Shown: positions 1,776-41,699 of the stretch, piece after piece
How the letters are laid out: each line of letters starts with the position of its first letter
Position numbering within the stretch: the stretch's first letter is position 1
Origin: an uncultured Pseudomonadota bacterium
GTDB taxonomy: Bacteria; Oederibacteriota; Muellerivitia; Muellerivitales; Muellerivitaceae
DNA length: 64,000 nt
Reading direction: 5' to 3'
NCBI GenBank assembly: GCA_963843375.1
Contig: CAWJKT010000009.1
Coordinates: 32,001 to 96,000, forward strand
The notes under the pieces: model-generated
The model's input: only the letters and a program-made list of their open reading frames with translations
Told to the model about the DNA's origin: nothing
The model's database searches: none
Position numbers and translations under genes: made by a program

Positions 1776-2218
1776 GTTTTTTCGTTTGTTTACCTAGGTT
1801 ATGACGCTTAAATTTTTCTGATCTAACCCTGATCTAACAAGTTTTCCTCTTCCTCAAGACTAAAAGTGAAGTGCTTACTCAAGTCAGGTTTTAAATTATT
1901 AAAGACGCAATAGATTTAAAGTCTATTGGATTCACTGAAAAATCAAGGAGGTTTCCCCAAAACTGGACCGCCAAAATATTAGTATTAGATTTGTAATTCC
2001 GTGTGAAATGGGAATTATTAATAACAACAAAGTAAGGGGTTATTGTCAAGTTATCCACAAAGACACTGAACTCCGGACTATCAATTTGATCTTTTTAAAA
2101 TGAAAATTAAGAAACTTGATGGGGCTCATACATTAATCATAAATGCAAGAGTAGAATTAAATTGATCGCTCAGGTAATTGTTTTTAGAAAACTCGACTGT
2201 TTTTCTTGAAGGCATTTC

Positions 2219-3886
2219 ATGCGAATAGAAAATCTCGATATAAATGAATTACTGGAATTAAGCCCCAAGAGGGGAATTGTTCATTTCGCGGGCCAGCGGG
2301 CTTTGATTTTTGACGCTGTGACTCACGGGATGCTTCGCAATGAGCTCGTTGATAGTTTTGGGGAAAGAACTGCTCGGGGCATTCTTACGCGCTACGGTTA
2401 TATTCACGGCAGGCGGCTTGCCGAAACCCTTAAAGATAAATATAAATGGGTCAACCAAGAGGAATGGCAAAAAGCCGGAGCGCGGATTTATGCCTTATTG
2501 GGTCTTTCTCTGCTGGACTCGGATAGCCCCACTACTTTTAGTTCTGAGGGTGGAACTTTTCACGTCTCCTACGAAGCGGAGCAGCATTTAATTCTCAACG
2601 GCCGTTCGAACAATCCGGTCTGTTGGAATCTTTGTGGAATCATCAGTGGTTACCAAAGTGTAGCATTGGGTAAGGAAATGTACGCGTTGGAAGATAAGTG
2701 TATGGGAAAGGGAGACCTGTTTTGTCATGTGGTCATCAAGACCAAGGAAGAATGGGGCGACAAGGTTGCGGATGAACTGGCGGTTTTCAAACGGGTTGGA
2801 ATTGACGAGGCTTTGGAGTGTGCCGCCGCCAAGTTGAAACAGGTCGAAAGCGAATTAATTGAAAAAACCCGCAAGCTAAATCTCAGCGCCAAAATCAATG
2901 ATGATCCGACGGAACGCATGACCAGAAGTCCCGAGATGCGCAAATTGATGGAACTGGCCAAAACCATCGCAGCGACGGACTCCACGGTTATGATTACGGG
3001 CGAGAGCGGCTCGGGCAAGGAAAGGGTAGCTCGTTTCGTGCACGACCAGTCCTTGCGCGCGGAAGGTCCCTTTATCGCCGTGAATTGCGGAGCTATCACC
3101 GAGACCCTGCTGGAAAGTGAACTTTTTGGCCACGCCCGGGGAGCTTTTACGGGAGCGGCGACGGACCGCCCGGGTCTTTTTGAGGCGGCCAACGGTGGTA
3201 CCCTTTTCCTTGATGAAGTTGGTGAAATTAGTCTTCCCATGCAGGTGAAACTACTTCGGGTACTTCAAGAACGGGAAGTTAGGCGTGTGGGTGAGAATAA
3301 AAGCCGTTCCATCAATGTGCGTATTGTCAGCGCCACCAATAAGATCATGAAAACCGAAGTGGCGCAAAAACGGTTCCGCGAGGATATTTATTACCGGCTG
3401 AACGTAGTCGAATTAACGGTTCCTCCCTTGCGCCACCGCAGGGAGGACATTCTTCCCCTGGCCCAGTTCCTTCTGGCGGAATCCGCCCTTCAAATGAAGC
3501 GGTCTGTGGACGGATTGACAACCGAAGCGGCTGATTGTTTGATGGGTTATGACTGGCCCGGCAATGTTCGCGAACTGGCCAATGCCATGGAGCGGGCGGT
3601 GGCTGTGACTAAGACCAATAGGATCGATGTCGGGGATTTTCCGCCGGAAGTACGATTAGGGAAGTCTTTAGTTTCTAATGCGGGTGTTCCACGGTCCTTA
3701 AGGGATATGGAGAAGGATTGCATCATGGCCGCGTTGGAAAAAACCGAAGGCAATCGTTTCAAAACCGCCGAGCTCATGGGGGTGGGTGTGGCGACGCTTT
3801 ATCGAAAGATCAAGACTTACCGATTGGATAAGACGAAAATCCAAAAAAACGTTAGGAAGCGTGGTTATGCCCGTGGACGAATATGA
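2219..3886 (+). CDS. Sigma54-dependent enhancer-binding activator (XylR_N + V4R + AAA+ + Fis HTH)
   Basis: GESGSGKE, ESELFGH, GAFTGA, LFLDEV, WPGNVREL; N-terminal XylR-like region with Cys-bearing V4R. Confidence 0.95.
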   Translation: MRIENLDINELLELSPKRGIVHFAGQRALIFDAVTHGMLRNELVDSFGERTARGILTRYGYIHGRRLAETLKDKYKWVNQEEWQKAGARIYALLGLSLLDSDSPTTFSSEGGTFHVSYEAEQHLILNGRSNNPVCWNLCGIISGYQSVALGKEMYALEDKCMGKGDLFCHVVIKTKEEWGDKVADELAVFKRVGIDEALECAAAKLKQVESELIEKTRKLNLSAKINDDPTERMTRSPEMRKLMELAKTIAATDSTVMITGESGSGKERVARFVHDQSLRAEGPFIAVNCGAITETLLESELFGHARGAFTGAATDRPGLFEAANGGTLFLDEVGEISLPMQVKLLRVLQEREVRRVGENKSRSINVRIVSATNKIMKTEVAQKRFREDIYYRLNVVELTVPPLRHRREDILPLAQFLLAESALQMKRSVDGLTTEAADCLMGYDWPGNVRELANAMERAVAVTKTNRIDVGDFPPEVRLGKSLVSNAGVPRSLRDMEKDCIMAALEKTEGNRFKTAELMGVGVATLYRKIKTYRLDKTKIQKNVRKRGYARGRI

Positions 3887-3929
3887 TTATTATTGGCTTT
3901 CAAAACTAAGGGTTAAGCTTATCGTGACT

Positions 3930-4187
3930 TTATTTGGCGGTATTTTGAGACTGATTTTGTGTTATGGACGAGCTTTCACCATAAGCTCCCCAATTGTGCC
4001 CGAAGATATGGTCGCAAAAGAAAACGTAGAGGCCGAATAGGGCTAATCCCGCCAAAAGTCCTTTTCCCACAAAACCGGCATTGAAAAGGGGACGGGTCTT
4101 GTTGGTTAATTTTAAATTGTGACCAGCCTCAAAATCGTTTTTTTCCTCAATGGTGCTTTCGTTCATTTCTGGTTGTGATGTCTCCAT
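3930..4187 (-). CDS. Small single-TM hypothetical protein
   Basis: RBS aagggg; one hydrophobic segment; downstream of DUF2934 gene. Confidence 0.5.
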   Translation of the reverse strand: METSQPEMNESTIEEKNDFEAGHNLKLTNKTRPLFNAGFVGKGLLAGLALFGLYVFFCDHIFGHNWGAYGESSSITQNQSQNTAK

Positions 4188-4248
4188 GTCTTATCCCCTT
4201 CTTTTAATTCATGTTTAAACTCAACTGATATTCTTATGCCGTTTTTCT

Positions 4249-4431
4249 TCAGATAGCCTTAAGGCTTTCCTGTATTTCCTTTTCCCCTTCTGCCCAATCG
4301 TGTAACTCGTCACCCGCTTGGGAATATCGTCCACGGTTCAACCAACTGTAATAAGCGGCTTCTTCGATCCTTTTGGTCGTCTCGCTAGCGCTGATAGGAG
4401 GAGCTGATTTGACTATTTTCTTAATGGACAT
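4249..4431 (-). CDS. DUF2934-like small protein
   Basis: RIEEAAYYSWLNRGR..GDELHDWAEGEKEI. Confidence 0.85.
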   Translation of the reverse strand: MSIKKIVKSAPPISASETTKRIEEAAYYSWLNRGRYSQAGDELHDWAEGEKEIQESLKAI

Positions 4432-4491
4432 ATGGATTTCCTTTTTGGTGATTTGGATTTAAAAATATTCATCGAAAGACTGATTAGTAAA

Positions 4492-4507
4492 AGCAAGAAA
4501 TAGGCCG
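4492..4507 (-). promoter_or_regulatory. Sigma54 -24/-12 promoter
   Basis: cGGcctatttcTTGCt on minus strand, canonical spacing. Confidence 0.7.
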
Positions 4508-4568
4508 TGTTTCCTTTGTCGTGTAACCTGATTTCATAAGCCCGATGGGAAGACTCTGTCCTTCCTTC

Positions 4569-4606
4569 TCGATCAGAATGATATTTTGATCGATCATTTT
4601 GATCGA
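4569..4606. promoter_or_regulatory. Putative enhancer (UAS), tandem ATCA-N3-TGAT
   Basis: tcgatcagaatgatattttgatcgatcattttgatcga; near-copies at 40008 and 41562. Confidence 0.7.
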
Positions 4607-4710
4607 AATAAACGAAATTCCGTAGAGGTTGAAAATTTACTATCGGCTCTTAAACGAATATTTCCTTCCGATTTTGAAGTGTTCGAAAGGTTCGTTCTGA
4701 AATTTATGGA

Positions 4711-4726
4711 CGGCATGTTCTTTGCT
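4711..4726 (+). promoter_or_regulatory. Sigma54 -24/-12 promoter
   Basis: cGGCAtgttctTTGCt, canonical spacing, upstream of LysM gene. Confidence 0.8.
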
Positions 4727-4784
4727 TTAATTCTTAAATTGAATTTCATTGATTGTGATATTCGGAATTAATAAGGAAAAAAAC

Positions 4785-5228
4785 ATGAGAAATAACGCGA
4801 AAACAGTGGTGTTTTTATCTTTAACCATGATGGGCTTAGGGGTTTATGGCTGTGGGACACCTAAAGTAGTCACCACCGAGGTTCCGAGCACGGCGGCAAA
4901 TAATGAGGTGGCGGTGGCAACACCCCAACCCCAAGCTCAGCCGCAACCGGCTCCGATGGAGAAGTATGTAGTTCAAAAAGGGGACACCCTTTGGGGGATT
5001 TCGGGCAAAACTGAAATTTACGGCGATTCCTTTCAATGGCCCCTGATTTTTAAGACCAACCGGGATCTCATTCAGGATCCGGACCTCATTTATCCCGATC
5101 AAACATTGACAATTGATAAGAGCGTTTCTGAGGCAGAAACGAAAAAAGCTGAAAAACTTGCCGATGAAACACCGAAATATGTTCCTCACGAGAAAGTTCG
5201 CAAAAAGCTCCCCATAGATTATTTTTAA
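4785..5228 (+). CDS. LysM-domain lipoprotein
   Basis: Lipobox VYGC; YVVQKGDTLWGIS...NRDLIQDPDLIYPDQ. Confidence 0.9.
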   Translation: MRNNAKTVVFLSLTMMGLGVYGCGTPKVVTTEVPSTAANNEVAVATPQPQAQPQPAPMEKYVVQKGDTLWGISGKTEIYGDSFQWPLIFKTNRDLIQDPDLIYPDQTLTIDKSVSEAETKKAEKLADETPKYVPHEKVRKKLPIDYF

Positions 5229-5286
5229 CGATGAAAGTTTTTAAATTATTTTGTTTCTTTTCGCTAAATCAAAATTGGGGGCATGA

Positions 5287-5559
5287 GTGGAAATCATAGA
5301 AAAAATGGAAATTAAAAACCGGTTGGGCCTTCACTTAAGGGCGGCTGCTGAACTGGTGAAGACGGCTTCCAAATACAAATGCCGAATATTGGTCAGAAAA
5401 AACCACCAGCAAGCGGATTGCAGGAGCATTCTAAATCTTATGGCGCTGGCGGCGAGCCATGGATCGGAACTCACGCTGATATTTGAAGGGGATGATGCCT
5501 GGCATGCGCATCAGGCAATTCAAAATCTTTTTCTCAACAAATTCGGAGAAAAGGAATAG
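5287..5559 (+). CDS. ptsH: HPr-family phosphocarrier
   Basis: GLHLRAAA (His15) and SILNLMAL (Ser46). Confidence 0.85.
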   Translation: MEIIEKMEIKNRLGLHLRAAAELVKTASKYKCRILVRKNHQQADCRSILNLMALAASHGSELTLIFEGDDAWHAHQAIQNLFLNKFGEKE

Positions 5560-5626
5560 CGGTTTGAAGATATGGCGGTATCGAATGATCCGGTGATTCC
5601 GTTCGTAAAAAAATTAAGGAGACACC

Positions 5627-8170
5627 ATGAGTCAAACATCCCCTATGAACCATTTGATATATGGGTTGCCTACGGATATCGAGGGATTCGATTCTCTCCT
5701 TGAATTGGCTTTGGATTTGCGCTGGTCTTGGAATCATGCCTCCGATGAAATATGGCGGAATCTGGATCCGGCGCTCTGGGATCAGACCCATCATCCCTGT
5801 GATATCTTGCATTCGGTTTCCCGGCAGAAAATAAGCGCTATGCTCGCCGATCCGGTTTTTCGAAAGAAGATCGACGCCCTTTTGTTATCTAAAAAGCAGG
5901 CGGAAGAAGCGCCTTCGTGGTTTCATAAGCATTATCCGGAATCCTCCCTGTCCTGTGTGGCGTATTTCAGCATGGAATTTATGTTAAGCGAAGCCCTTCC
6001 AATTTATTCGGGAGGCCTGGGCAATGTGGCCGGCGACCAGCTCAAAGCCGCCAGCGATCTGGGCGTTCCGGTGGTGGGCGTGGGCCTGCTCTATCAGCAG
6101 GGATATTTTCGCCAGGTGATCGACAAGCAGGGGAACCAACAGGCCATCTATCCTTACAACGACCCGGGTCAACTGCCCATTACGCCCCTGCGCCTTCCGA
6201 ACGGCGAATGGCTGAGGCTGGAAATCACCCTGCCTGGTCATTCGGTCTGGTTGCGGGCCTGGCAGGCGCAGGTCGGGCGGGTCAAGCTTTACCTTCTGGA
6301 CAGCAATGATGTGGCTAACATTCCCGCGCACCGGGAGATCACCAGTGAACTGTATGGAGGCGGTCCGGAACTTCGGTTGAAACAAGAGATGGTGCTTGGG
6401 ATCGGCGGGTGGCGTTTGCTGCGCGCGATGGGGCTCCAACCGAAAGTCTGTCACCTCAACGAAGGCCATGCGGCCTTCGCTGTGCTGGAACGGACGCAGA
6501 ATTTCATGGAGGAAACCGGCCAGCCTTTTGACACGGCCCTAGCCATCACGCGGGCGGGAAACTTGTTTACCACACACACGGCGGTGGTCGCCGGCTTTGA
6601 TCGTTTTGACCCGGTTCTGATAGAACAATATCTCGGTGGATACGCTGAAAAAAAACTCGGAATATCCCTAGGCAGTCTGCTGGCGCTGGGCCGTCAGAAC
6701 CCGGATGACCCGTCGGAAAGTTTCAATATGGCCTATCTGGCTATCCGTGGAAGCGGGTCGGTCAACGCGGTAAGCCGCCTGCATGGCCAGGTTAGCCGGC
6801 ATCTTTTTGAGCCGCTTTTTACGCATTGGCCTGAGGCTGAGGTTCCCATCGGCCACGTCACGAATGGAGTCCACATGCCCACCTGGGATTCGGCCCCGGC
6901 CGATGATCTTTGGACGGAAGCCTGTGGGAAAGACCGATGGCTGGGTCCGTTGGAAAATCTGGAGCAGAACATCCGCCGCATTTCCGACGATAGGTTCTGG
7001 CGGTTTCGGACCGCCGCTACCAAGTCTTTTGTTGAATACGCGCGTGAGAGGTTGTCCGCGCAACTGGCCGTTTCGGGCGCCTCACCGGAGGAGGTGGAAG
7101 CGGCCAAACATATCTTCGATCCCAACACGTTAACGCTGGGTTTCGCGCGCCGTTTCGCCACTTACAAACGGCCCGATATGCTGTTACACGATCCAGAGAG
7201 GTTGCTACGCCTGTTAACCAATCCCCAGCGTCCAGTCCAACTGGTCATCGCCGGAAAGGCCCATCCGGAGGATCAGGCTGGACAGGCCCTGATCCATGAG
7301 TGGATCAAATTTATCCGCAGACCCGAAGCCCGCCCGCATGTGGTCTTCCTCAGCGACTACGACATGCTTTTGAGCGAATACCTGGTGCAGGGAGTCGACG
7401 TTTGGATCAACACCCCCCGGCGGCCATGGGAAGCCTGCGGAACCAGCGGCATGAAGGTGCTTGTCAATGGAGGCCTCAATCTTTCTGAATTGGACGGTTG
7501 GTGGGCAGAGGCCTATACCCCGGAGGTCGGCTGGGCATTGGGAGACGGCAAAGAGCATGGCGATGATCCCGCCTGGGATGCCGATGAGGCCGAAGCGCTT
7601 TACGGCCTGCTCGAACAAAAAGTGATCCCGGAATTTTATGACCGCGATGGGAGCGGCATTCCGACGGCGTGGGTTCAACGGATGCGCGAGAGCATGGCTC
7701 GATTGACTCCGAATTTTTCCTCCAACCGCGCCGTACGGGAATACACCGAGAAACATTATCTCCCGGCCGCTTCGGCTTACCTTGAGCGCTCGGCAAACAA
7801 AGGCGTCGTGGGTAAACAAATGGTTGATTGGCAAAAAAAATTGGAACAGAAATGGTCCGCGATTCATTTCGGGGACTTGAAGATTGATAACCATGATAAC
7901 CAACACTTTTTTGAGGTTAAGGTCTATCTCAATGACATGGATCCACGATCCGTAAGAGTGGAGCTTTACGCTGAGGGCGCCAAGGGCGAGTCTCCTTTTC
8001 GGCAGGAAATGAAGAAAGTGAGCCCTTTGCCTGACACCATTGGCGGCTTTATTTACGGAGTGAAGATTTCTGAGGGTCGGCCACCGACGGATTATACGGC
8101 AAGAGTGATCCCACACCACGATGGAGTCGCCGTGCCTTTGGAAGAGAAACGGATCCTATGGCAACGATAA
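5627..8170 (+). CDS. glgP: Alpha-glucan phosphorylase
   Basis: YFSMEF, YSGGLG, HLNEGH, RRFATYKR, EACGTSGMK. Confidence 0.95.
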   Translation: MSQTSPMNHLIYGLPTDIEGFDSLLELALDLRWSWNHASDEIWRNLDPALWDQTHHPCDILHSVSRQKISAMLADPVFRKKIDALLLSKKQAEEAPSWFHKHYPESSLSCVAYFSMEFMLSEALPIYSGGLGNVAGDQLKAASDLGVPVVGVGLLYQQGYFRQVIDKQGNQQAIYPYNDPGQLPITPLRLPNGEWLRLEITLPGHSVWLRAWQAQVGRVKLYLLDSNDVANIPAHREITSELYGGGPELRLKQEMVLGIGGWRLLRAMGLQPKVCHLNEGHAAFAVLERTQNFMEETGQPFDTALAITRAGNLFTTHTAVVAGFDRFDPVLIEQYLGGYAEKKLGISLGSLLALGRQNPDDPSESFNMAYLAIRGSGSVNAVSRLHGQVSRHLFEPLFTHWPEAEVPIGHVTNGVHMPTWDSAPADDLWTEACGKDRWLGPLENLEQNIRRISDDRFWRFRTAATKSFVEYARERLSAQLAVSGASPEEVEAAKHIFDPNTLTLGFARRFATYKRPDMLLHDPERLLRLLTNPQRPVQLVIAGKAHPEDQAGQALIHEWIKFIRRPEARPHVVFLSDYDMLLSEYLVQGVDVWINTPRRPWEACGTSGMKVLVNGGLNLSELDGWWAEAYTPEVGWALGDGKEHGDDPAWDADEAEALYGLLEQKVIPEFYDRDGSGIPTAWVQRMRESMARLTPNFSSNRAVREYTEKHYLPAASAYLERSANKGVVGKQMVDWQKKLEQKWSAIHFGDLKIDNHDNQHFFEVKVYLNDMDPRSVRVELYAEGAKGESPFRQEMKKVSPLPDTIGGFIYGVKISEGRPPTDYTARVIPHHDGVAVPLEEKRILWQR

Positions 8171-10344
8171 ATAAAAACCCTCAACGAGAACTGGGCGATT
8201 ACATTTCCGATATGTCTGAGCACTCCGATATCCGGGTCGGTTCGCCGCTACCCCTGGGAACCCAGGAAAGGGGAGAAGGAGTTAATTTCGCCCTGTTTAG
8301 CCGCCATGCCACAAGGGTCCGGCTGGAGTTGTTTGACCATCCGGAGGACGCCGCGCCCGCCCGGTTTTTCGATCTGGACGCTTCTTTGAACCGCACTGGC
8401 GACGTATGGCACGTTTGGGTGAAAGGTATCAGTTCCGGCCAGCTCTATGCTTACCGCTTGGACGGTCCCTATTCTCCCGAGGAAGGACACCGTTTCAATT
8501 TTAAACGGCTTCTGCTTGATCCCGCCGCCGTTGCGATTTCAAATCTGCCCCCATGGGATTTTGCGTCTGCCCTTGGATACGATCCGTCGTCGCAGGGGAA
8601 GGACCTAACTCTCTCAAAGGAGGATAACGCCAAGTCGACGCCCAAATGTATCTTTCTAAACGAGTCTTTCGAATGGAAGGGGGACCAGCCTCTCCGCCAT
8701 CCTTGGTCGAAGACCCTCATTTACGAGACCCATGTCCGTGGTTTTACCATGGATCGGAAGTCGGGAGCAAAGCATCCGGGAACCTACCGGGGCATGATGG
8801 AAAAGATTCCCCATCTCAAAACACTGGGTGTTACCGCCGTGGAACTGATGCCGGTCTTGGAATTCAATGAAAATTTCCTCACACGGAAGGATCCGAACAC
8901 GAACCAATCCCTCAGGAATTACTGGGGATACGATCCTGTTACTTTCTTCGCGCCCAAAGCTTCCTATAGCAGTTCGGGCGGGATGGGCCAGCAGAAACTG
9001 GAGTTTAAGGAAATGATCCTGGCTTTCCACCAAGCGGGCATCGAAGTGATTCTGGACGTGGTGTTTAACCATACGGCGGAAGGAAACGAACTGGGTCCGA
9101 CGCTTTTCTTTCGCGGGATCGACAACTCGATTTTTTATACCCTTGCGGCGGACAAGCGCCGTTATAAGGATTACGCGGGAACCGGCAATACGATTAACGC
9201 CAACCATCCGGTGGTACGGGACCATATCCTGGCGGCCCTGCGTTATTGGACGGTCGAGATGCACGTGGATGGGTTTCGCTTTGATTTGGCATCGGTTCTC
9301 GGCAGGGGCGAAAGCGGAAGATTGTTGGCTAACGCGCCGCTTTTGGCCCGGATCGCCGAGGATCCAATCCTGAGGGACGTTAAGCTCATCGCGGAGGCAT
9401 GGGACGCCGGCGGGGCCTACGAGGTGGGAAGTTTTTCGGAACGGCGCTGGGCGGAATGGAACGGCCGTTATCGGGATGACGTGCGGCGTTTCTGGCGCGG
9501 TGATGACGGAATTCTCGGCTCGTTCGCCAGCCGACTCTGCGGAAGCGCGGATATTTATAGCAAGCCGGGCAAAGGACCGGAGGGAAGTATCAATTTTATT
9601 ACCTGCCACGACGGGTTCACTTTGAATGACCTGGTCAGCTATTCCGCCAAACATAACGAGGCGAACGGTGAAAACAACCAGGACGGGACAAATAACAACT
9701 TTAGCGGGAACTATGGCTTCGAGGGCTTAACGAAGGACGCCGGAATTGAGACGATTCGAAAACGCCAGATCAAGAATTTTATGCTGACCCTGATGATTTC
9801 GCGCGGCGTGCCGATGATCCTCGGCGGGGACGAATTCCGCCGCACCCAGGGCGGCAACAACAACGCCTATTGCCAGGACAATGAAACCAGCTGGTTGGAC
9901 TGGAAACATTTCGACCAGCATCAGGAAATATTCCGGTTTACCCAAGGCATGATCGCTTTTCGTAGAGCTCATCCTGTCCTGAGTAAAGAAGAATTCTACA
10001 AAAATGAAGGAATTAATTGGTTTGGTCCGGAGGGCGGACTGCCTCATTGGGCAGATCTCAAGTGCAAACAACTTGCCTGCGTTATTCATGAAAATGAAAA
10101 AGAAAGTATTTACCTTATGTTCAACGCGGGTACAGAAGCGGCTGATTTTGGTTTGCCGTCACCATCGGAAGGGTATGGCTGGAGTTTATCGGTCGATACA
10201 TTCCTACCTTCGCCAAGGGATATGGCCGAGGCGGGCAAAGAAATACTTTTGAAAAATTCAAAGATTTACCATGTTGAAGCCCGCTCCAGCGTCATTCTTC
10301 TGGCGGGCAAGCCTAAACACGGCGCGCGAAAGGATACCCCATGA
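8158..10344 (+). CDS. glgX: Glycogen debranching enzyme
   Basis: NYWGYDP, DVVFNHTAEG, DGFRFDLAS, HDGFTLND; start may be 8212. Confidence 0.95.
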   Translation: MATINKNPQRELGDYISDMSEHSDIRVGSPLPLGTQERGEGVNFALFSRHATRVRLELFDHPEDAAPARFFDLDASLNRTGDVWHVWVKGISSGQLYAYRLDGPYSPEEGHRFNFKRLLLDPAAVAISNLPPWDFASALGYDPSSQGKDLTLSKEDNAKSTPKCIFLNESFEWKGDQPLRHPWSKTLIYETHVRGFTMDRKSGAKHPGTYRGMMEKIPHLKTLGVTAVELMPVLEFNENFLTRKDPNTNQSLRNYWGYDPVTFFAPKASYSSSGGMGQQKLEFKEMILAFHQAGIEVILDVVFNHTAEGNELGPTLFFRGIDNSIFYTLAADKRRYKDYAGTGNTINANHPVVRDHILAALRYWTVEMHVDGFRFDLASVLGRGESGRLLANAPLLARIAEDPILRDVKLIAEAWDAGGAYEVGSFSERRWAEWNGRYRDDVRRFWRGDDGILGSFASRLCGSADIYSKPGKGPEGSINFITCHDGFTLNDLVSYSAKHNEANGENNQDGTNNNFSGNYGFEGLTKDAGIETIRKRQIKNFMLTLMISRGVPMILGGDEFRRTQGGNNNAYCQDNETSWLDWKHFDQHQEIFRFTQGMIAFRRAHPVLSKEEFYKNEGINWFGPEGGLPHWADLKCKQLACVIHENEKESIYLMFNAGTEAADFGLPSPSEGYGWSLSVDTFLPSPRDMAEAGKEILLKNSKIYHVEARSSVILLAGKPKHGARKDTP

Positions 10345-31108: not shown

Positions 31109-31585
31109 ATGGAAATTAAGAAATCACGGAGCGTTGTCGGTATCGCCGCCGACCATGGCGGATTTGAATTAAAGGAACAGCTTTTGGGTAAATTGCGGGA
31201 CGCCGGTTATGAAACGATGGATTTCGGGGATGCGGGACTGAAGCCTGATGATGATTATCCGGATTTTGTCGTTCCGCTGGCCCGTGCGGTCGTCGGCGGA
31301 GAGGTGTGGCGCGGAGTGGCCTTATGCGGAAGCGGTGTCGGGGCTTCGGTTGCCGCAAACAAAGTGAAGGGGATTCGGGCCTGTCTCATTCATGAAACTT
31401 TTTCAGCGCACCAGGGCGTCGAGGATGACAACATGAACATTCTCTGCCTGGGCGGTCTTGTTATCGGACACGCTCTTGCTTGGGAATTGGTTCGAACATT
31501 TCTCGCAGCACGATTCAAGGAAACCGAGCGTTATCGGCGCCGCCTGTCCAAGGTTTCCGAACTTGAAAATAAGGAGACAATATGA
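31109..31585 (+). CDS. rpiB: Ribose-5-phosphate isomerase B
   Basis: [23 protein letters not shown]. Confidence 0.92.
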
Positions 31586-33213: not shown

Positions 33214-33291
33214 GGATAGCGGGATATTGAATAGGCTGACAATTTATACCTCTATCCGTAATAAAGAGGGGTAACACATGAGGAGACAATC

Positions 33292-34944: not shown

Positions 34945-36276
34945 TCAGGGATGCCAAGAGCCGTAATGTTCCCGAATTATCCCCCGGGGCAGGCTTAAAA
35001 CTATAATTAGCAGACCGGTAATCACTCCGTTCCAACAGGACATCGGATTGGCCGCATTTAATAAACAAGATCCAAAGATAACCCACGCGCCCAGCAACAG
35101 GTTGAAATGCCTACCTGTCCGAACGACTTCGGACATGACCATAACGGATGTGGCGATGATCAAAGCACCGGCGACATGATCGCTGTTGGCGGCCGCAGCG
35201 GTTGTGGGCCAAACGGCGGGTAAAACCATCAGCCAGACGCCTAAAAGCGTGCTCACAGCGAGAGTCCAGGTAACACTGACGCCCCTGATCATCCAGGTTA
35301 TAGGGTGGACAGGCGCGCCATGGGCCAGCGCCCGTGATTCCTGGTTCTTTCCGCTTTCCCCTGATTCTCCGGCGAGGAACGTCCCCCAGAATGGTTTTCC
35401 CTGGCGGAGGCTGAGGCGCATGAATTGAACCATCGCGAAAACTTCATCGACCGCGAAGGTGATCATCAGAAGCATTGCTGTCGCGATCACGAGACAAAGG
35501 GTGCACCAATGACCCACCACGATCGGCTGAAGGATTACTAACGTCATACTGACCAGACCCAAAGGCACCACGAGAATGAAAAAGAAAAGGACTACAAAGG
35601 GCATCGTGCGCCAGCGGGCCGCACCACCCGTACATCCGATAAGCATCTCCAGGGTATAGGCAAAGGCGCCCAGCCCAGCGTCCGAGACAGGAATCATTTG
35701 GGAAACTTTGGAGGTGAGGACCAGACGGGTGCCGTCCCCGAAGAAAGGATCCCAGACACTGGAGATATAACCGAGCTGATAGGAGGCAAGATACCGCGAA
35801 ATAAACCAGCCGATGAACGCGAGGTAAATAACGGGGACTCTTTGACGCCAGCCGGAGGGATTAAAGCTCCAGCCGGGGGGAATCCCAGGATCCGGTCGCA
35901 TCGTTTCCGGGGTAATACCGGGAATCGTGGGTATTAATAAAAAGAGGACAATGGCGGTTAGTCCGACAAAGGTGTCATTGATCATCATGACGGGCTGGGG
36001 GGCCCAAAAGAGCAGAGGGGCCAGTTGCAGCCAGATACCTACGAAGCCCACGCCCCAAAGTCCGATAGACTCCATTTTGGGAATAAGGGCGACTGCGGCA
36101 AAGAAAATGAGCCACGCTCCGCTAAGGATATCGCTGTTAAGCATTTTCCCGGGCGGATAGCGGAGAGCAAAAGGACCGCTGACCAGCCATAGTCCCAGGG
36201 CCATTACGGTTAAATTAATCCATAGACGGGCTGCGCGGGTGGGAACGATCTTCCGTATGCGCCCCCGGCGGCTCAC
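34945..36276 (-). CDS. VKOR-family membrane protein with SPW repeats
   Basis: SDAGLG and WCTLC redox motif; SPW-like TM hairpins at both ends. Confidence 0.8.
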   Translation of the reverse strand: MSRRGRIRKIVPTRAARLWINLTVMALGLWLVSGPFALRYPPGKMLNSDILSGAWLIFFAAVALIPKMESIGLWGVGFVGIWLQLAPLLFWAPQPVMMINDTFVGLTAIVLFLLIPTIPGITPETMRPDPGIPPGWSFNPSGWRQRVPVIYLAFIGWFISRYLASYQLGYISSVWDPFFGDGTRLVLTSKVSQMIPVSDAGLGAFAYTLEMLIGCTGGAARWRTMPFVVLFFFILVVPLGLVSMTLVILQPIVVGHWCTLCLVIATAMLLMITFAVDEVFAMVQFMRLSLRQGKPFWGTFLAGESGESGKNQESRALAHGAPVHPITWMIRGVSVTWTLAVSTLLGVWLMVLPAVWPTTAAAANSDHVAGALIIATSVMVMSEVVRTGRHFNLLLGAWVIFGSCLLNAANPMSCWNGVITGLLIIVLSLPRGIIREHYGSWHP

Positions 36277-36434
36277 AGGGGTTCACTGTCCCATGCTTCG
36301 CTTGATGAGTCTTTGGATAGGGGCAAGCCGCATTGAGCGCAGGAACCAGGTTTTTCTTTTAGTGTTTCGGGATGGATTGGACAGTAATAATTGGATTCTG
36401 AGTCGTCCGAGGAATCCTGTATCTTAGCGGGCAT
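36273..36434 (-). CDS. Heavy-metal-binding (HMBD-like) microprotein, 53 aa, not in ORF track
   Basis: MPAKIQDSSDDSESNYYCPIHPETLKEKPGSCAQCGLPLSKDSSSEAWDSEPL; overlaps both neighbours. Confidence 0.8.
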   Translation of the reverse strand: MPAKIQDSSDDSESNYYCPIHPETLKEKPGSCAQCGLPLSKDSSSEAWDSEPL

Positions 36435-37536
36435 GGAGTTCTTTTGGGGCAGGTTGAGCAGTTTTTTTGAGCCTGGAAGGGAGGTTCAGTTTATTGGCGT
36501 AGTACCAGGCGGCGGGATCGTTTTTGAGCGAAGCCGTCATTTTGGGAAGTGTGCGGCGCAGGGAATGCTTAGGCTTCCAGCCGATCAGTTTTTGGGCGCG
36601 GCGGATATTCAGGGTGTAATTATCGTCCGCCAAATCGATCATCCAGGGCTTGATAAAGTGATCAACTCCCGGCACGAGATTTTCCAGCCATGCGCCGGTT
36701 TTCGCGACGAATTTTGGAATTTTCCTGGTCTCCCAGTCTTTGCCGTAAAGAAGCAGTCCGAAAGCGTCCTGGAGTGTCTGGTAGCTTAACGTTTCGGATT
36801 CGCCTAGAAGGATGGTGGTTTCTTTTGGCAAAAGATTCCGCTTTTCGACCACTTTCATAATGGTATCCACCAAATCCTCGAGATGGATAAAGGACTGGCC
36901 GTGGGTTACATCCCCGGGGAAAAGATGACCGAGGAACTTTTGTTCATAGATGCGTTGAACTTGGTGCGCGATGGGAATGGAGTGGCACTCGTCGTTATAA
37001 ACTCCCGCGATACGCAGGATGACGGCGGGAATTTTGCCGTGTTTTTGATGGATAAGTTTTTCGGTTTCAACTTTTGATTTCGGATAGTCCCATTTGGGCT
37101 CCAAAGGCCAGTCTTCCTTCATGCGTTCATTCGGCTGGTTGGGAGCATAAACGAGCATCGAGCTGGAGAATACGAACTGCCCGACCTGAAACCGTTGAAG
37201 CTCATGGAGCACACGTTCCGTACCGCGCACCGTGAGATCCTCGTACAAGGGGCTTGGTTTGCCAGAAAAATCGTAAAAAGCGGCCAAATGAATAACCGAA
37301 GCGATCTTTTTACCATAGCCCACCTGCACGCGGTCAAACGCCTGGCGGACCCTCTTGTCATTGGTCAAATCCACCTGGACGCATTCCGCCATCGGCAGCG
37401 GATGGGAAGGAGATGTTTCACGGTCAAAACCTATAACCCGGAAATGATCAGCCAATCGTTCTACCAATGATGTGCCTATAAGTCCGTTGGCGCCTGTGAC
37501 GATAACCACCCTTTTGCGCGATTCTGTGTTTGTCAT
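36424..37536 (-). CDS. NAD-dependent epimerase/dehydratase (extended SDR)
   Basis: TGANGLIG, HLAA, YPKSK. Confidence 0.88.
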   Translation of the reverse strand: MTNTESRKRVVIVTGANGLIGTSLVERLADHFRVIGFDRETSPSHPLPMAECVQVDLTNDKRVRQAFDRVQVGYGKKIASVIHLAAFYDFSGKPSPLYEDLTVRGTERVLHELQRFQVGQFVFSSSMLVYAPNQPNERMKEDWPLEPKWDYPKSKVETEKLIHQKHGKIPAVILRIAGVYNDECHSIPIAHQVQRIYEQKFLGHLFPGDVTHGQSFIHLEDLVDTIMKVVEKRNLLPKETTILLGESETLSYQTLQDAFGLLLYGKDWETRKIPKFVAKTGAWLENLVPGVDHFIKPWMIDLADDNYTLNIRRAQKLIGWKPKHSLRRTLPKMTASLKNDPAAWYYANKLNLPSRLKKTAQPAPKELHAR

Positions 37537-37573
37537 GTGATGCCTTTCGAATGGCTTTTGTGGTTGGGTTCTT

Positions 37574-37891
37574 TTAATGGTTCTTCAGTTCGACCGAGTT
37601 GGGAGGAGCTGGGGTTTGACCGTAGGTTCCTAATCGGCCATTTCTGTCGTTATGGTAGATATAAAAAGCGATCATTCCCAAAAGAAGGAGGCCACCCAGA
37701 AAGGTTCGCACGTAAACGTTTTGGTGGAAAGGGGAGGGTGTGTCGGGATCGGCCAATGCTTTTTCAAATTGGTCTTCCCGCTTTTGTTCCGGCGTCAACG
37801 ATGGGTTTACCGGTGGTGGTTGTTCTGCCGGCGCCCCAATGGGTTCTCCTGGTCTTACCTCCGGTTTAAATTCATTGTGCACAGTCAGCAT
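37574..37891 (-). CDS. Small single-TM hypothetical protein
   Basis: RBS aggag; Pro-rich N-terminus and one TM helix. Confidence 0.6.
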   Translation of the reverse strand: MLTVHNEFKPEVRPGEPIGAPAEQPPPVNPSLTPEQKREDQFEKALADPDTPSPFHQNVYVRTFLGGLLLLGMIAFYIYHNDRNGRLGTYGQTPAPPNSVELKNH

Positions 37892-37951
37892 TGATCGTCT
37901 CCTTTTAATTCCTGGAAATTGTCCTCGGGCAAATTTGCCTCTGGGCTTGTT

Positions 37952-38104
37952 TTACCATTCTTCTTTTGAACTATCCTTCACCAAGGTAAATCCGCATCGG
38001 GTGCAAGCTCCGGGCTTGTCCTTAATGATTTCTGGATGGATGGGGCAGTAATAACCGGAGTTATCATCGTTTTTTGAAATTTGAACTTTGATAGTCATAA
38101 CCAT
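37952..38104 (-). CDS. Heavy-metal-binding (HMBD-like) microprotein, 50 aa, not in ORF track
   Basis: MVMTIKVQISKNDDNSGYYCPIHPEIIKDKPGACTRCGFTLVKDSSKEEW. Confidence 0.8.
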   Translation of the reverse strand: MVMTIKVQISKNDDNSGYYCPIHPEIIKDKPGACTRCGFTLVKDSSKEEW

Positions 38105-38126
38105 ATCCAACCTATAAATTCGATTT

Positions 38127-38537
38127 TCATTGTCGACCGAACTGGGGAAACCAAAAAAAATGGCTCGCTATCAGCATGGTTAGGCAAAAGATCAATATCC
38201 AAAAGTAGACATCCAGGTCCGCTTTTTGATTTTCAGTCGCCTTCGACTTCTTTTTAAATTTGTAAAAGATAGGCGCACGGCGTGGGCTGACCGAAGTGAG
38301 TAGTACCGCTGCAAAAAATCCTCCAAAAACAATGGGTATCCAGCTAATGCCCATCCAGAGCGGGCCGTAAGGCTTAAGCCAGACCGCAGCGGTCCAGGCG
38401 AAAAGGACCACGACCAATAAAAAGGACAGGAAACTTCCCCACGGGCCCTTGGTACCAAACGTTCGGGAAAAGGTATAAACGATGATTACTCCAACGAGAA
38501 TTGTCACGAAAAAATCAGTAAAAATCATGTAAGACAC
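38127..38537 (-). CDS. 4-TM membrane protein (paralogue B)
   Basis: GTKGPWGS, W..PYGP.W.G..W, SVSPR shared with neighbour. Confidence 0.8.
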   Translation of the reverse strand: MSYMIFTDFFVTILVGVIIVYTFSRTFGTKGPWGSFLSFLLVVVLFAWTAAVWLKPYGPLWMGISWIPIVFGGFFAAVLLTSVSPRRAPIFYKFKKKSKATENQKADLDVYFWILIFCLTMLIASHFFWFPQFGRQ

Positions 38538-38558
38538 CCTAGAGCCAGAGATTTGAAC

Positions 38559-38966
38559 TCAATACCAACCGAGTTGGGGATACCAGTAATAATGGCTGAA
38601 TGCTAAAAATACTAAAACCATGATGAGTATCCAAAAGAAGGCGTCCGCGGCAGTTTTTCGTTCTTCCGCAGACACGGTTTCTTCTTTCAAATTCACCGGT
38701 ACGGGAGGACGTGTTTTACGGGGGCTGACCGAGGTAAGCAAAAAGGCGACCAAAAAGCCCACAAAGATAATGGGGATCCAGCCAACGCCGAACCACACCG
38801 GACCGTAAGGTCTTAGCCAGACACCGGCGACCCAGGCGAAAAGGGAAACCACAATAAAAAACCAAATCAGACTTCCCCAAGGACCTTTGGTTCCAAATGC
38901 GAGGGAAAGTAAAAAGACAATCAGTGAACCGATAATGAAAGCGGCGAATAGGTCTGCGAGGAACAT
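38559..38966 (-). CDS. 4-TM membrane protein (paralogue A)
   Basis: Tandem paralogue of 38127-38537; RBS aggag. Confidence 0.8.
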   Translation of the reverse strand: MFLADLFAAFIIGSLIVFLLSLAFGTKGPWGSLIWFFIVVSLFAWVAGVWLRPYGPVWFGVGWIPIIFVGFLVAFLLTSVSPRKTRPPVPVNLKEETVSAEERKTAADAFFWILIMVLVFLAFSHYYWYPQLGWY

Positions 38967-39070
38967 GAGAGACTCCTTTTGAGTTTTGACGGAACGGGTG
39001 GGACCATACTTTTTTAAGAAAAATTCAAAAGGGAACTGCGGTGAGGCAGAACCCTTTTGGCTCTATGCGG

Positions 39071-39844
39071 TTAATTCCAGTAATATTGAACGTAGCTGGG
39101 ATCGTCGTAATAGTAAAAGTATTGTTTGTTCTCTTGGATGAAGGTTGAATTCGAATCCAACGAAGTGTTAAAGGCGGTAAATTGGTCTTTCGTCAGTTTA
39201 TCCGAACCGTTGGTTTTGAAATCTGCCGTCATTTGGTCCTCGACCGACTTCAAAGCCGTGCCGCAATTTTTGGCTTGGTCGCTGTTCAGGGTATTGTTGG
39301 TTAAACCCTGTTGAATCCGTTCGCGCTGGTTTTTAATCCGTTCCTTCAACTCATATATCCTCGGATGGGTTTCTTCCATCGCGGATACGGATGGGGTAGG
39401 CGCTCCGACAACCGGATAGGAGTCATAGTAATAATCGTAGTTCGGACCGTAATCGACATAGGGACCGTAGTAGTAGAAATACTGTTTATCCTCGTGGATG
39501 GCCGCAGAATTCGCGTCGAGGGACGTGTTGTAAGCGTCATAGGTGTCTTTCGACATTATTTTCTTCGAGCCATTGGCTTTACATTCATCCTTCATCTTGC
39601 CCTGTACGGTGTTCAAAACCGCGCGGCAAGCATCGGCGTCGGACACGGACAGTGTACCGTCGTTTAAACCCTGCTTGATACGAGCAATCTGGTTTCTGAT
39701 GCGGTCCTTCAACTGGACAATTCTCGGATGTGCCAGTTTCTTTTCGGACACATGTTTAACGACCGGTGTAGCGTCTTGGGCGGATGCAAAGCCCAGGCTT
39801 CCAACGGCAAAAACCGCACCTATCAGCAATGCTTTCTTTAACAT
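39071..39844 (-). CDS. Secreted two-repeat helical protein with Tyr-rich motifs (copy 1)
   Basis: Signal peptide; 2x HPRI..LK.RI.NQ..RI.QGL...KQYFYYY. Confidence 0.8.
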   Translation of the reverse strand: MLKKALLIGAVFAVGSLGFASAQDATPVVKHVSEKKLAHPRIVQLKDRIRNQIARIKQGLNDGTLSVSDADACRAVLNTVQGKMKDECKANGSKKIMSKDTYDAYNTSLDANSAAIHEDKQYFYYYGPYVDYGPNYDYYYDSYPVVGAPTPSVSAMEETHPRIYELKERIKNQRERIQQGLTNNTLNSDQAKNCGTALKSVEDQMTADFKTNGSDKLTKDQFTAFNTSLDSNSTFIQENKQYFYYYDDPSYVQYYWN

Positions 39845-39900
39845 AAAAATCCTTTAACCATTTTTAGAATCCCGCCCTTACGAGGCAGGAGAGTTATTAA

Positions 39901-39916
39901 AGCAAGGAGCATGCCC
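39901..39916 (-). promoter_or_regulatory. Sigma54 -24/-12 promoter
   Basis: gGGCAtgctccTTGCt on minus strand. Confidence 0.8.
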
Positions 39917-40007
39917 CTGGTGTTTTACCGGCAAATAGAAAGATTTATGGGAAAACACCTGTTTTTAAACTGCCTTGGAAAAGATTCCGGAATGTACGAA
40001 AGGTTTT

Positions 40008-40044
40008 TCGATCAAAGTGATAATTTGATCGTTCATTTTGATAA
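40008..40044. promoter_or_regulatory. Putative enhancer (UAS)
   Basis: tcgatcaaagtgataatttgatcgttcattttgataa. Confidence 0.7.
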
Positions 40045-40130
40045 GTATTTCTAATTGGTCCTCCAATTAGAAATCGCTTACTTGTTGATGTAGGCGAAAC
40101 TGCATTGCGAATTTCAATCAATTTGCTCAA

Positions 40131-40146
40131 GGGTATGGAACTTGCT
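40131..40146 (+). promoter_or_regulatory. Sigma54 -24/-12 promoter
   Basis: gGGtatggaacTTGCt. Confidence 0.7.
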
Positions 40147-40195
40147 CTTTTACTTTCGGCAAAGAAAAATGGATACTTGAAAGCTAGGCAAAAGT

Positions 40196-40447
40196 ATGGC
40201 CGATATTCTGAATCAACAAGAAAATGTACGAATTCAGGAAGAGAAAACGAGAAAATCTGATTGGGCTCAATGGCTTCACGTCTATCGTTGGGGTGTTTTG
40301 ATCGTGGCAGTTCTATTCCTGGTCGCCCTCGTTACCTATTTGCTGACCGGTAATTTGACCTGGCGCCCGCATGGTCAATGGCATTGGGCGAAAGAAACGA
40401 AGGATAAAAATGGAACTGAATTGCCCCCAGTCACCAGTGCCCCTTAA
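40196..40447 (+). CDS. Small single-TM hypothetical protein
   Basis: One TM helix; directly behind sigma54 site. Confidence 0.6.
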   Translation: MADILNQQENVRIQEEKTRKSDWAQWLHVYRWGVLIVAVLFLVALVTYLLTGNLTWRPHGQWHWAKETKDKNGTELPPVTSAP

Positions 40448-40640
40448 AGAAATTTAATAAAATGTTTAACTTCGAATTTTGTGGCTAAACCATTTAGAAA
40501 CAACAATTTTAAATTTTCGCAACAGATAGTTTTGTGTCCAACCATCTTAAATTGGTATATAGAATTATCATTCGTTCGATTCGGATGACTGCGGCTATGG
40601 CAACATTTGCCTTATGGTATTGAAATCAATGCCAGCCGAG

Positions 40641-41399
40641 TTATTGAATGTAGTTGTGATCGTTGTAGTAATAGAAATAAATTCTGCTCTCCTGGATAAC
40701 GGTTGAGTTTGCATCCAGCATGGCGTTAATCCCGGCAGTTTGGTCCTTCGTCAGATGATGGGAGCCATTGGTCCTAAAATCCACGTTCATCTGATCCCTG
40801 GCCGCGTCCAAAACTGCGTCGCAATGTTTGGCCTGATCACTGGACAAGGAATTGGTGGTTAAATACTGCTGAATCCGGGCGCGCTGAGCCTTCAGACGGT
40901 CTTTCAGTTCAAAGATTCTAGGACCTGTCTTTGCCGACGGGCTGAAAATATTTGGAGTCGGGGCTTGAGCCTTCGGATACTGGTCATCGTAATAATCACC
41001 GGAGTCGTCTAAGGGGCCGTAACTGTAGAAGTACTGTTTTTGCTCCTTAATAAAGCCGGAATTCCTGTCCAGCGATGCGTTGTAAGATTCGTAGGATTCC
41101 TTCGAAATTGTTTTCTTCCCGCCGTTGGCCGCACGCTCAGCTTTTATCTGGTTTTCCACGTTGTCCAGAAGCGTACGGCAAGTTTCAGCTTGGGGAGCAG
41201 TCAGGATACCGGCGGCTAAATCCTGATCAATCCGGGCACGTTGATTTTGAATGCGGTCCTTCAGATAGATAATTCGCATGCGAACCAATTTTTTGGTGGA
41301 AATTGGCTTAGTGACGGCCGGGGTGACATCCTGGGCGCGGACAAGGCCCGTGCTTCCCGCAGCAAAAATAGTGGCTATCAACAACGCTTTCTTGAACAT
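40641..41399 (-). CDS. Secreted two-repeat helical protein (copy 2)
   Basis: Paralogue of 39071-39844; start MFKKALL at 41399 with RBS aagga. Confidence 0.8.
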   Translation of the reverse strand: MFKKALLIATIFAAGSTGLVRAQDVTPAVTKPISTKKLVRMRIIYLKDRIQNQRARIDQDLAAGILTAPQAETCRTLLDNVENQIKAERAANGGKKTISKESYESYNASLDRNSGFIKEQKQYFYSYGPLDDSGDYYDDQYPKAQAPTPNIFSPSAKTGPRIFELKDRLKAQRARIQQYLTTNSLSSDQAKHCDAVLDAARDQMNVDFRTNGSHHLTKDQTAGINAMLDANSTVIQESRIYFYYYNDHNYIQ

Positions 41400-41456
41400 G
41401 AAAAATCCTTTAACGGTTTTTTGAATCCCGCTCTTATGGGAAAGATGAGTTATTAA

Positions 41457-41472
41457 AGCAAGGAGCATGCCT
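41457..41472 (-). promoter_or_regulatory. Sigma54 -24/-12 promoter
   Basis: aGGCAtgctccTTGCt on minus strand. Confidence 0.8.
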
Positions 41473-41561
41473 TTGGTGATTTACTGGAGAACAGAAACAT
41501 TTATGGGAAAACACCTGTTTTTAAACTGTCTTGGAAAAGGTTCCAATTGCGCGAAGGGGTT

Positions 41562-41598
41562 TCGATCAAAGTGATAATTTGATCGTTCATTTTGATAA
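41562..41598. promoter_or_regulatory. Putative enhancer (UAS)
   Basis: Identical to 40008-40044. Confidence 0.7.
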
Positions 41599-41683
41599 TT
41601 ATTTCCAATTGGTTGTTCAGTTAAAAATCATATTGTTATCGAGTTAGCAAACGTATTGCGCAAATTACAATCGATTCGCAGCA

Positions 41684-41699
41684 GGGTATAGAACTTGCT
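41684..41699 (+). promoter_or_regulatory. Sigma54 -24/-12 promoter
   Basis: gGGtatagaacTTGCt. Confidence 0.7.

Follow-up and report, generated by a model that had tools for sequence, protein, structure and literature searches.

We analyzed a window of 64,000 nucleotides, the whole stretch of DNA G000:C9:32001-96000, from the 4.05-Mb genome of a never-cultured bacterium. The window carries a discrete movable island of 57 kb between 206-bp direct repeats. The island possesses an activator gene (positions 2219-3886, plus strand), three divergent pairs of sigma-54 promoters (A, B and C) and three palindromic enhancers, one in the middle of each pair.

The protein deduced from the activator gene is predicted to be a complete enhancer-binding protein of the XylR/DmpR type, in agreement with the initial annotation of this DNA. 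It consists of an XylR_N and V4R sensor, a sigma-54 AAA+ domain with GAFTGA, an AAA lid and a Fis-type helix-turn-helix (HTH_8). The Pfam E-values were 4.9e-25 for XylR_N (87.6 bits, cut-off 23), 1.4e-70 for Sigma54_activat and 2.1e-13 for HTH_8, and the translation contains the Walker A sequence GESGSGKE. The DmpR chain 6iy8 was aligned to residues 10-468 of the activator (E 1.8e-80). The sensor structures of DmpR, MopR and PoxR matched its sensor with E-values of 1e-16 to 1e-17, and XylR of pWW0 showed 36% identity across 96% of the activator. The genome also has rpoN, the DNA-binding domain of which was detected at G000:C8 (214 bits). Upstream of the activator gene, no sigma-54 site was found.

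Six GG-N10-GC sites form the three divergent pairs, and all of them have a TTGCT -12 element. The first G of GG, counted on its own strand, is at 4712(+), 4506(-), 40132(+), 39915(-), 41685(+) and 41471(-). Promoter A(+) (4712-4727, GGCATGTTCTTTGCTT; predicted start ~4737) stands ahead of a LysM gene (ATG 4785), HPr, glucan phosphorylase and the following genes. Behind promoter A(-) (4491-4506, minus strand, GGCCTATTTCTTGCTT; predicted start ~4481) are a DUF2934 gene (4249-4431) and then the gene of an 85-amino-acid protein of no family (3930-4187); G001:C1, from another genome, shows the same A(-)-type arrangement. Promoter B(-) (39900-39915, minus strand, GGCATGCTCCTTGCTT) has a predicted start at ~39890, and promoter B(+) (40132-40147, plus strand, GGTATGGAACTTGCTC; predicted start ~40157) stands ahead of an open reading frame (ORF) of 83 amino acids (40196-40447). 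Promoter C(-) (41456-41471, minus strand, GGCATGCTCCTTGCTT; predicted start ~41446) precedes the gene (40641-41399) of a 252-amino-acid paralogue of the 257-amino-acid protein behind B(-), and promoter C(+) (41685-41700, plus strand, GGTATAGAACTTGCTT) has a predicted start at ~41710. All six fit the pattern GGYMTR-N3-YTTGCT, which has 15 matches in the genome, 6 of them in the window. The IHF consensus WATCAR-N4-TTR had no match in the three control regions; IHF-assisted looping is thereby neither backed nor ruled out.

The central motif was found at 4569, 40008 and 41562, and these are the sole copies in the genome at up to 9/33 mismatches. It is an 11-bp half-site inverted across a 12-bp spacer (34 bp, GATCArArTGA-N12-TCATTTTGATm), and the spacer contains a third half-site. 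Enhancer A (4571-4604) reads GATCAGAATGA-N12-TCATTTTGATC with the third half-site TTTTGATCG within the spacer, and has 1/22 mismatches to the palindrome of the family, which is described below. Enhancer B (40010-40043) belongs to the same three-half-site class, and enhancer C (41564-41597) is the same as enhancer B across 34 bp. No strand is assigned to any of the three. The distance from the enhancer centre to GG was 82-125 bp for the window promoters. Straight after enhancer B, a further inverted repeat, ATTTCTAATTGG-N4-CCAATTAGAAAT, was observed at 40047-40074. It is partly retained in region C and may be a site for another protein.

The initial annotation had described six correctly spaced sites in three divergent pairs, each pair sharing one central enhancer about 60-140 bp from the promoters. 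All six are present, the earlier minus-strand coordinates marking the opposite end of the sites, and the distances above, which are typical, agree with the second statement. A motif does stand in the middle of each pair; the number of independent instances, however, is two, since regions B and C are duplicates (see below). Half-versions of the motif had also been reported at 2078 and 50680. The former consists of a single half-site that begins at 2081 and deviates at one position. With one mismatch allowed, the window has 9 half-sites, 7 within four palindromes and 2 solitary, and shuffled sequences gave a mean of 1.0 and a maximum of 3. The 2078 half-site is thus indistinguishable from chance and does not speak for autoregulation. 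At 50680 the motif exists, not as a half-version but as a full, weak palindrome (50681-50713, no strand; 4/22 mismatches, N11 spacer) ahead of the genes for cytochrome oxidase. It has no promoter partner, and no sigma-54-like site was found between it and the oxidase genes.

Similar sigma-54 sites exist in other parts of the genome, and inspection of the DNA upstream of them revealed the palindrome GATCAAAATGA-N11-13-TCATTTTGATC before most of these sites. A genome scan detected 25 palindromes at up to 4/22 mismatches, and three shuffles gave 0, 0 and 1. They form clusters: 3 strong and 1 weak in the window, 5 at 437-457 kb of contig C4, 11 at 347-381 kb of C11 and 3 on C19. Three weak matches are isolated, outside the clusters. 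A sigma-54 site was present at 59-222 bp from 15 of the 25.

The palindrome was then counted in the family. At up to 2 mismatches, it was detected in 21 of the 31 family genomes, and a reversed-pattern control gave 0 except in two genomes, with 1 per strand there. At up to 1 mismatch, it was detected in 18 of the 31, and the control was 0 everywhere. Outside the family, in 68 genomes that represent 22 families of the same phylum, the latter threshold yielded a single one-strand match in one genome (1/68; control 0). For the relatives, 33 distinct palindromes were taken from those loci of ~20 other family genomes that have enough flank. An outward-facing sigma-54 site lies 58-222 bp from the centre in 28 of them, with all but two of the distances within 126 bp, and many palindromes are flanked on both sides. 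The background of the outward sigma-54 pattern is 147 matches in 4.05 Mb, or ~0.01 expected per enhancer. Across genera, the half-sites and the -24/-12 elements are the only conserved parts, and the spacers and flanks vary. Such a pattern is the footprint expected of an enhancer that functions. Nor does the enhancer belong to the island alone: it also stands before sigma-54 promoters in three other islands of the genome and across the family.

In its distribution, the palindrome goes together with the activator family. Of the 30 family genomes tested (G046 left out), 18 gave an activator match covering the sensor, and all 18 have the palindrome. The other 12 gave no such match: 10 of them lack the palindrome and one is at the control level; the remaining one has a single perfect palindrome, and a broken gene there could have escaped the threshold of the search. 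No sensor-covering match was found among 16 sampled genomes of other families. In many genera, the distance between activator genes and palindromes is no more than a few kb.

The genome encodes two further full-length paralogues of the activator, on C4 and C19, which are 75% and 72% identical to it. Both sit within palindrome-rich islands, each downstream of an enhancer-promoter pair. This placement suggests autoregulation of these copies; the window copy has no such pair. The recognition helix VATLYRK-I/L-K is common to the three paralogues and to the closer homologues among 43 aligned sequences. Its identity explains why one enhancer sequence is shared, and for the same reason the local activator is not uniquely assignable to the local sites. 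Since the C11 island possesses 11 enhancers but lacks a matching activator gene of its own, its enhancers are presumably acted on in trans.

Based on these results, we consider that the window is one module of a family-wide sigma-54 network, in which an activator of the XylR/DmpR type works on palindromic enhancers. We assign this reading a probability of roughly 0.65. The promoters, the enhancers, the coupling between them, their conservation, the activator domains and rpoN were all read directly from the DNA. In the proposed mechanism, a XylR/DmpR-type protein would bind the enhancer, in which the 11-bp half-site GATCAAAATGA is inverted across a spacer of 11-13 bp. The enhancer centre, ~60-125 bp from GG, would often serve two divergent promoters simultaneously. 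A triggered N-terminal sensor would let the GAFTGA-bearing AAA+ domain open the sigma-54 closed complex. The local activator most likely drives the three three-half-site enhancers of the island, and the paralogues elsewhere in the genome, sharing its recognition helix, probably cross-talk with the island sites. As the output, glycogen would be mobilized by phosphorylase, debranching enzyme, MalQ, PGM and PGI, and the product would enter the pentose-phosphate pathway as well as the route through phosphoketolase and acetate kinase. The same output would include catalase, metabolite repair, membrane proteins and small proteins of the stress type.

Several points weigh against this reading. Regions B and C are duplicates of one another (they agree at 43 of 44 motif positions, the flanks are similar and the left-hand genes are duplicated too), and the window therefore offers two independent instances rather than three. 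The count of GGYMTR-N3-YTTGCT is partly circular because the pattern was derived from the same six sites, and a loose scan with TGGCAC-N5-TTGC (up to 2 mismatches) showed no enrichment, with 56 sites found and 61.5 expected. The V4R match of the activator (4.8e-07, 30.2 bits) is just below the Pfam cut-off of 31; that of the C19 paralogue (32.2 bits) is above it. The co-occurrence of palindrome and activator is supportive and is not proof, because the genomes are related and islands may travel as packages. Other regulators, namely a Crp-like protein and a hybrid kinase, travel with the islands as well. The genome is a draft bin (32 contigs, 80% complete, 4% contaminated, contig GC 43-58%), and a single cell may therefore have fewer than the three paralogues counted; even so, 2-4 full-length activator copies are also present in relatives with nearly complete genomes. 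Finally, the survival and energy-reserve programme that the targets would make up is drawn from the names of the genes.

Expression data bear on the same question. The stretch 38000-47000 is present in peat and permafrost metagenomes of many studies and in six RNA libraries. Contigs of four peat and permafrost RNA libraries from three studies, compared with 33000-52000, fall on the minus-strand genes (36078-39872) and on the pentose-phosphate genes (41771-48682). One RNA contig stops at 39872, with adapter next, 18 nt inside the predicted start of B(-), which is a weak hint in favor of that promoter. The data are short assembled contigs, from which starts, strands and levels are unreadable. 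Against the simple model, a contig from two runs of one sample covers 41435-41773, the entire C control region. This contig represents either DNA carry-over or transcription that starts elsewhere and reads through. The region 39974-40607 has no contig cover in the four runs, which is not evidence of silence.

The initial annotation had regarded the island as a self-contained regulon, and in the strict form of this explanation the island activator alone binds the three island enhancers and the paralogues are uninvolved. Part of the claim holds, since the island is a discrete, repeat-bounded element with one activator and three enhancers. The three-half-site subclass accounts for 3 of the 25 palindromes of this genome, all in the window. 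Elsewhere, among the matches listed, it was found only in G023, a genome placed in another genus that has a 98%-identical activator. There it occurs at three loci, namely a copy of site A and two non-orthologous loci, each between divergent sigma-54 promoters. The island activator also possesses Phe where 41 of the 43 homologues have Trp. A private enhancer subclass for the island is thus possible. However, the palindrome is shared with three other islands and with the family, the outer half-sites of the island enhancers are only 1-2/22 mismatches away from the family palindrome, and all three paralogues of the genome have one recognition helix. Furthermore, the link between subclass and activator is one observation because G000 and G023 share the same island. 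Strict self-containment is therefore a doubtful alternative to the network reading, and we regard it as a good deal less likely.

Another explanation is that the TGATC-rich motif is bound by a regulator of the FNR/CRP type and that a different enhancer-binding protein serves the sigma-54 promoters. The half-site does hold TTGAT/ATCAA, the core of FNR boxes, a Crp-like regulator gene lies within the C4 island, and the genome has ~12 candidate loci with a sigma-54 AAA+ domain. The FNR box is TTGAT-N4-ATCAA and the CRP site is TGTGA-N6-TCACA, with half-site centres ~10 bp apart. In contrast, the arms ATCAAAATGA ... TCATTTTGAT read ATCAA...TTGAT with centres 22-24 bp apart, so that both orientation and spacing are wrong for FNR. 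The initial annotation had named binding of the motif by FNR/CRP as fatal to its proposal; as judged from this inverted order and wide spacing, the motif does not appear to be FNR/CRP-like. In addition, the motif is coupled to sigma-54 promoters in 28 of the 33 cases from relatives, it is distributed among genomes in the same manner as the XylR-type activator, and it usually adjoins the gene of such an activator. We consider this explanation very improbable. A last explanation takes motif and promoter-like sites for repeats devoid of function, for remnants of duplication or for hairpin/terminator-like elements. The B and C duplicates speak for it, as does a terminator scan in which 4569-4593 is marked as a hairpin with a T run behind it. 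It is hardly credible, because the flanking genes diverge from the motif and cannot be terminated by it, only the half-sites and -24/-12 elements are conserved across genera, and the reversed-pattern control is ~0.

We then compared the sensor of the activator with that of DmpR. In DmpR, the phenol hydroxyl is held between His100 and a "strictly conserved" Trp128, the pocket lining is hydrophobic, a Cys/Glu/Cys/Cys zinc site lies beside the pocket, and XylR carries Tyr at position 100, as stated in a study of DmpR (PMC7264223). Residues C135, E158, C161 and C169 of the activator are aligned with the zinc ligands of DmpR and are invariant in all 43 homologues; the DmpR residue count used here is off by 2 from the numbering of that study for three cysteines. 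The position of His100 is occupied by Y91, and the 43 homologues have Tyr in 21 cases and Leu in 20. At Trp128, the pairwise alignment has a gap of 6 residues. The His100 plus Trp128 pair of an aromatic effector pocket is therefore absent from the activator as aligned. Y90, F93, V113 and Y155 of DmpR are replaced by E, Q, T and I, respectively, whereas F122, Y159 and the F/Y170 position are retained or conservatively substituted, that is, 3 of the 9 pocket residues mapped in a single pairwise alignment with DmpR 6iy8. As aligned, the sensor retains its fold, whereas its pocket has been remodelled and has become more polar. The effector is therefore probably not a phenol.

Next, the genes behind the promoters were assigned by Pfam. 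The first plus-strand block (4785-20212) is tightly packed and comprises genes for LysM, HPr, alpha-glucan phosphorylase, debranching enzyme, MalQ, PRC-barrel, HAD hydrolase, acetate kinase, a second PRC-barrel, phosphoketolase and a large catalase. From the spacing of its genes, we infer that this block is one operon. The second plus-strand block (20423-34944) comprises aldehyde dehydrogenase, Zn-alcohol dehydrogenase, NAD(P)HX repair (YjeF), alcohol dehydrogenase, class I aldolase, P-type ATPase, PPK2, RpiB, PGI and PGM. Behind B(-), the minus-strand genes (34945-39844) encode a putatively secreted Tyr-rich protein of 257 amino acids, three small proteins of no family, an epimerase and a VKOR-SPW protein. 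Behind C(+), the plus-strand genes (41737-50397) encode a 115-amino-acid protein of no family, Band 7, transketolase, transaldolase with an Hva1 domain, 6PGDH, G6PDH in two frames and a polyketide-cyclase-like protein. Cytochrome oxidase and bc-type genes follow on the plus strand from 50890.

The initial annotation had one activator switching on most of the island. The sequence ties only the first genes behind each promoter to that promoter, and control of the second block by A(+) is not among these ties. No sigma-54 site was found in the gaps 20212-20423 and 26456-26943. The further statement of the initial annotation that the window lacks aromatic catabolism genes agrees with our scan: no such family was detected by Pfam among 45 window ORFs, 102 ORFs of the other islands and 32 first genes in relatives.

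The other islands (G000:C11:340-382 kb, C4:433-458 kb and C19:16-34 kb; L062-L068) encode many Ice_binding-like secreted proteins (PF11999), BON, DUF2934 and DoxX proteins, two ferritin/Dps proteins and Cu/Zn superoxide dismutase. Rhodanese, YceI, DedA/VTT, pirin, phospholipase D, a GH94 glucan enzyme, a hybrid kinase and response regulators were also found there. The first genes in relatives (n=32) were Ice_binding-like in 5 cases, pirin in 4, DUF2934 in 2, rhodanese in 2 and of no family in 13; Band 7, LysM, YHS, YmgE/GlsB-like and DUF5670 were also represented. In a nearly complete genome of the same genus, one island has the order activator, enhancer, glucan phosphorylase, acetate kinase, phosphoketolase. 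The core association has thereby been conserved. Phosphoketolase and acetate kinase in the island would provide ATP without respiration.

XylR/DmpR-type sensors are switches for the breakdown of aromatics or hydrocarbons, usually with one regulator for one or two operons. The island activator has the same domain order, including the B-linker, and the same zinc site as XylR (TOL pWW0, Pu/Ps), DmpR/CapR, MopR and PoxR. PMC7264223 places the palindromic enhancers of DmpR ~100-200 bp upstream of sigma-54 promoters. Here too, palindromic enhancers lie upstream of sigma-54 promoters at roughly such a distance. Unlike in the XylR and DmpR systems, the targets are not aromatic catabolism genes, the phenol-pocket residues are mostly replaced, and each genome has many enhancers and several paralogues with one recognition helix. 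The enhancer sequence also differs from that of XylR, since the pWW0 Ps/Pr region shares the ATCAA core only.

Divergent sigma-54 promoter pairs with one enhancer region are known from E. coli, for zraP-zraSR with ZraR and for hyc-hyp with FhlA. In the ZraR, FhlA and OrpR systems, a palindrome likewise lies between two outward sigma-54 promoters and the activator gene is beside the targets. For the orp operons of Desulfovibrio, a divergent sigma-54 pair sharing an enhancer, with the gene of OrpR beside its targets, is described in PMC8359166. These regulons comprise one or two operons, whereas at least 22 clustered sites, four islands and family-wide conservation were found here. Thus, the mechanism (enhancer-binding protein, palindromic enhancer and sigma-54 promoter) and the sharing of an enhancer by a divergent pair are already known. 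The stress and reserve-carbon targets, the scale (dozens of sites and several paralogues with one code), the remodelled pocket and the carriage on an att-flanked element are new.

BmoR has a sensor of the XylR type. An alcohol-responsive sigma-54 activator of Thauera butanivorans is what PMC6366067 describes under this name. BmoR is a precedent for small non-aromatic effectors, and Zn-alcohol and aldehyde dehydrogenases are among the targets here. BmoR controls one alkane monooxygenase operon, unlike the multi-site regulon of this family.

General stress regulons are governed by RpoS in E. coli, SigB in Bacillus and EcfG/PhyR in Alphaproteobacteria, which are alternative factors of the sigma-70 family. 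Their membership includes functions that are also found here: large catalase, transketolase, transaldolase, class I aldolase, aldehyde dehydrogenase, Cu/Zn superoxide dismutase, Dps/ferritin, BON (OsmY-like), YmgE/GlsB-like, PRC-barrel and DUF2934 proteins. The wiring is different, with sigma-54 and ligand-type enhancer-binding proteins in place of a dedicated sigma factor with partner switching; RpoS, SigB and EcfG systems were not searched for in the genome. As a tentative extension of the network reading, which we think rather unlikely to hold as a whole, sigma-54, and not a dedicated alternative sigma factor, would run the general stress and dormancy response of the family. Paralogous XylR-type sensors of Tyr and Leu classes, with remodelled and more polar pockets, would use one enhancer code, and parts of the response would move between genera on att-flanked islands that plug into the resident network. 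If this were true, several internal or environmental signals (for example a metabolite of freezing, anoxia or starvation) would converge on the same promoters, possibly via mixed oligomers.

No description of this regulon was found in the open-access literature, subscription journals and supplements being outside the scope. A 2025 survey of sigma-54 regulons (PMC12316311) does not contain the terms "general stress", "pentose phosphate", "catalase", "phosphoketolase" or "XylR". The machinery known from aromatic breakdown appears to run a large programme of protection and energy reserve in never-cultured bacteria of peat and permafrost, and with the clear, conserved enhancer as a guide, genome data suffice for reading the entire regulon. 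The 34-bp site, the portable activator and the sensor with its probably non-aromatic ligand give a testable handle on stress survival in an unstudied phylum. They may also yield a new ligand sensor and an orthogonal set of sigma-54 parts for biosensors.

The borders of the island were examined by blastn of window 1-2200 against the window. The left copy of the direct repeat (359-563, no strand) is att-like and holds a fragment resembling the 3' end of a tRNA; the right copy (57490-57695, no strand) is 98.5% identical to it over 206 bp. The C-terminal end of an integrase (3-290, plus strand) lies to the left of the island. On the right, fragments of a TraG/TraD-type coupling protein and HigA/HigB-type toxin-antitoxin genes occupy 57802-59533. 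Direct repeats at the ends, a tRNA-derived att sequence and an integrase close by, the usual signs of an integrative island, are thus all present. Another tRNA-like fragment was seen at ~1735-1778. ARAGORN detected no tRNA gene in the window, the fragments being visible by eye only, and a scan of the window with Rfam gave no RNA family reaching the gathering score.

In G023, G023:C47:60394-66206 is a 98%-identical copy of window 345-6153. The identity begins at the direct repeat (345) and extends to the end of the G023 contig. Past the first 5.8 kb, only the 206-bp repeat was recovered at near-identity in G023, whose contig stops there. This copy is consistent with recent transfer of the island, with a binning mix-up as the alternative. 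With the module on an att-flanked island of which another genus has a 98%-identical copy, the case shows how gene transfer can spread a regulatory network, subject to the same alternative of mis-binning. Pieces of window 36-566 recur many times in G001, G023, G013 and G041, with 72-97% identity in the matches listed, and this recurrence would fit a repeated att or integrase-end module.

A cluster of cytochrome oxidase, Rieske and cytochrome b genes at 50890-56987 has a second, same-order counterpart at G000:C11:340962-345473, bordering the C11 island. The duplication is either paralogy or a sign of two related populations in the bin. The gene of G6PDH is split into overlapping frames, 48216-48968 for the N domain and 48863-49798 for the C domain, by a frameshift or a sequencing error. 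An intact second gnd-zwf pair was found in the C4 island (L066:263-3183).

The HPr-like gene (5287-5559) is directly upstream of the alpha-glucan phosphorylase gene (5627-8170), and by eye it has His in GLHLRA and Ser in RSIL. E. coli HPr binds and regulates glycogen phosphorylase, and by analogy the pairing of the two genes may be functional. Two unusual fusions were observed: a transaldolase with an N-terminal Hva1_TUDOR domain (45322-46782) and a P-type ATPase with a DUF2934 motif near the C terminus (26943-30188). The paralogous proteins of no family encoded at 39071-39844 and 40641-41399 (minus strand) are the first behind sigma-54 promoters and, by eye, have N-termini like signal peptides. 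Each contains an internal duplication ending in Tyr-rich QYFYYY motifs, as also seen by eye.

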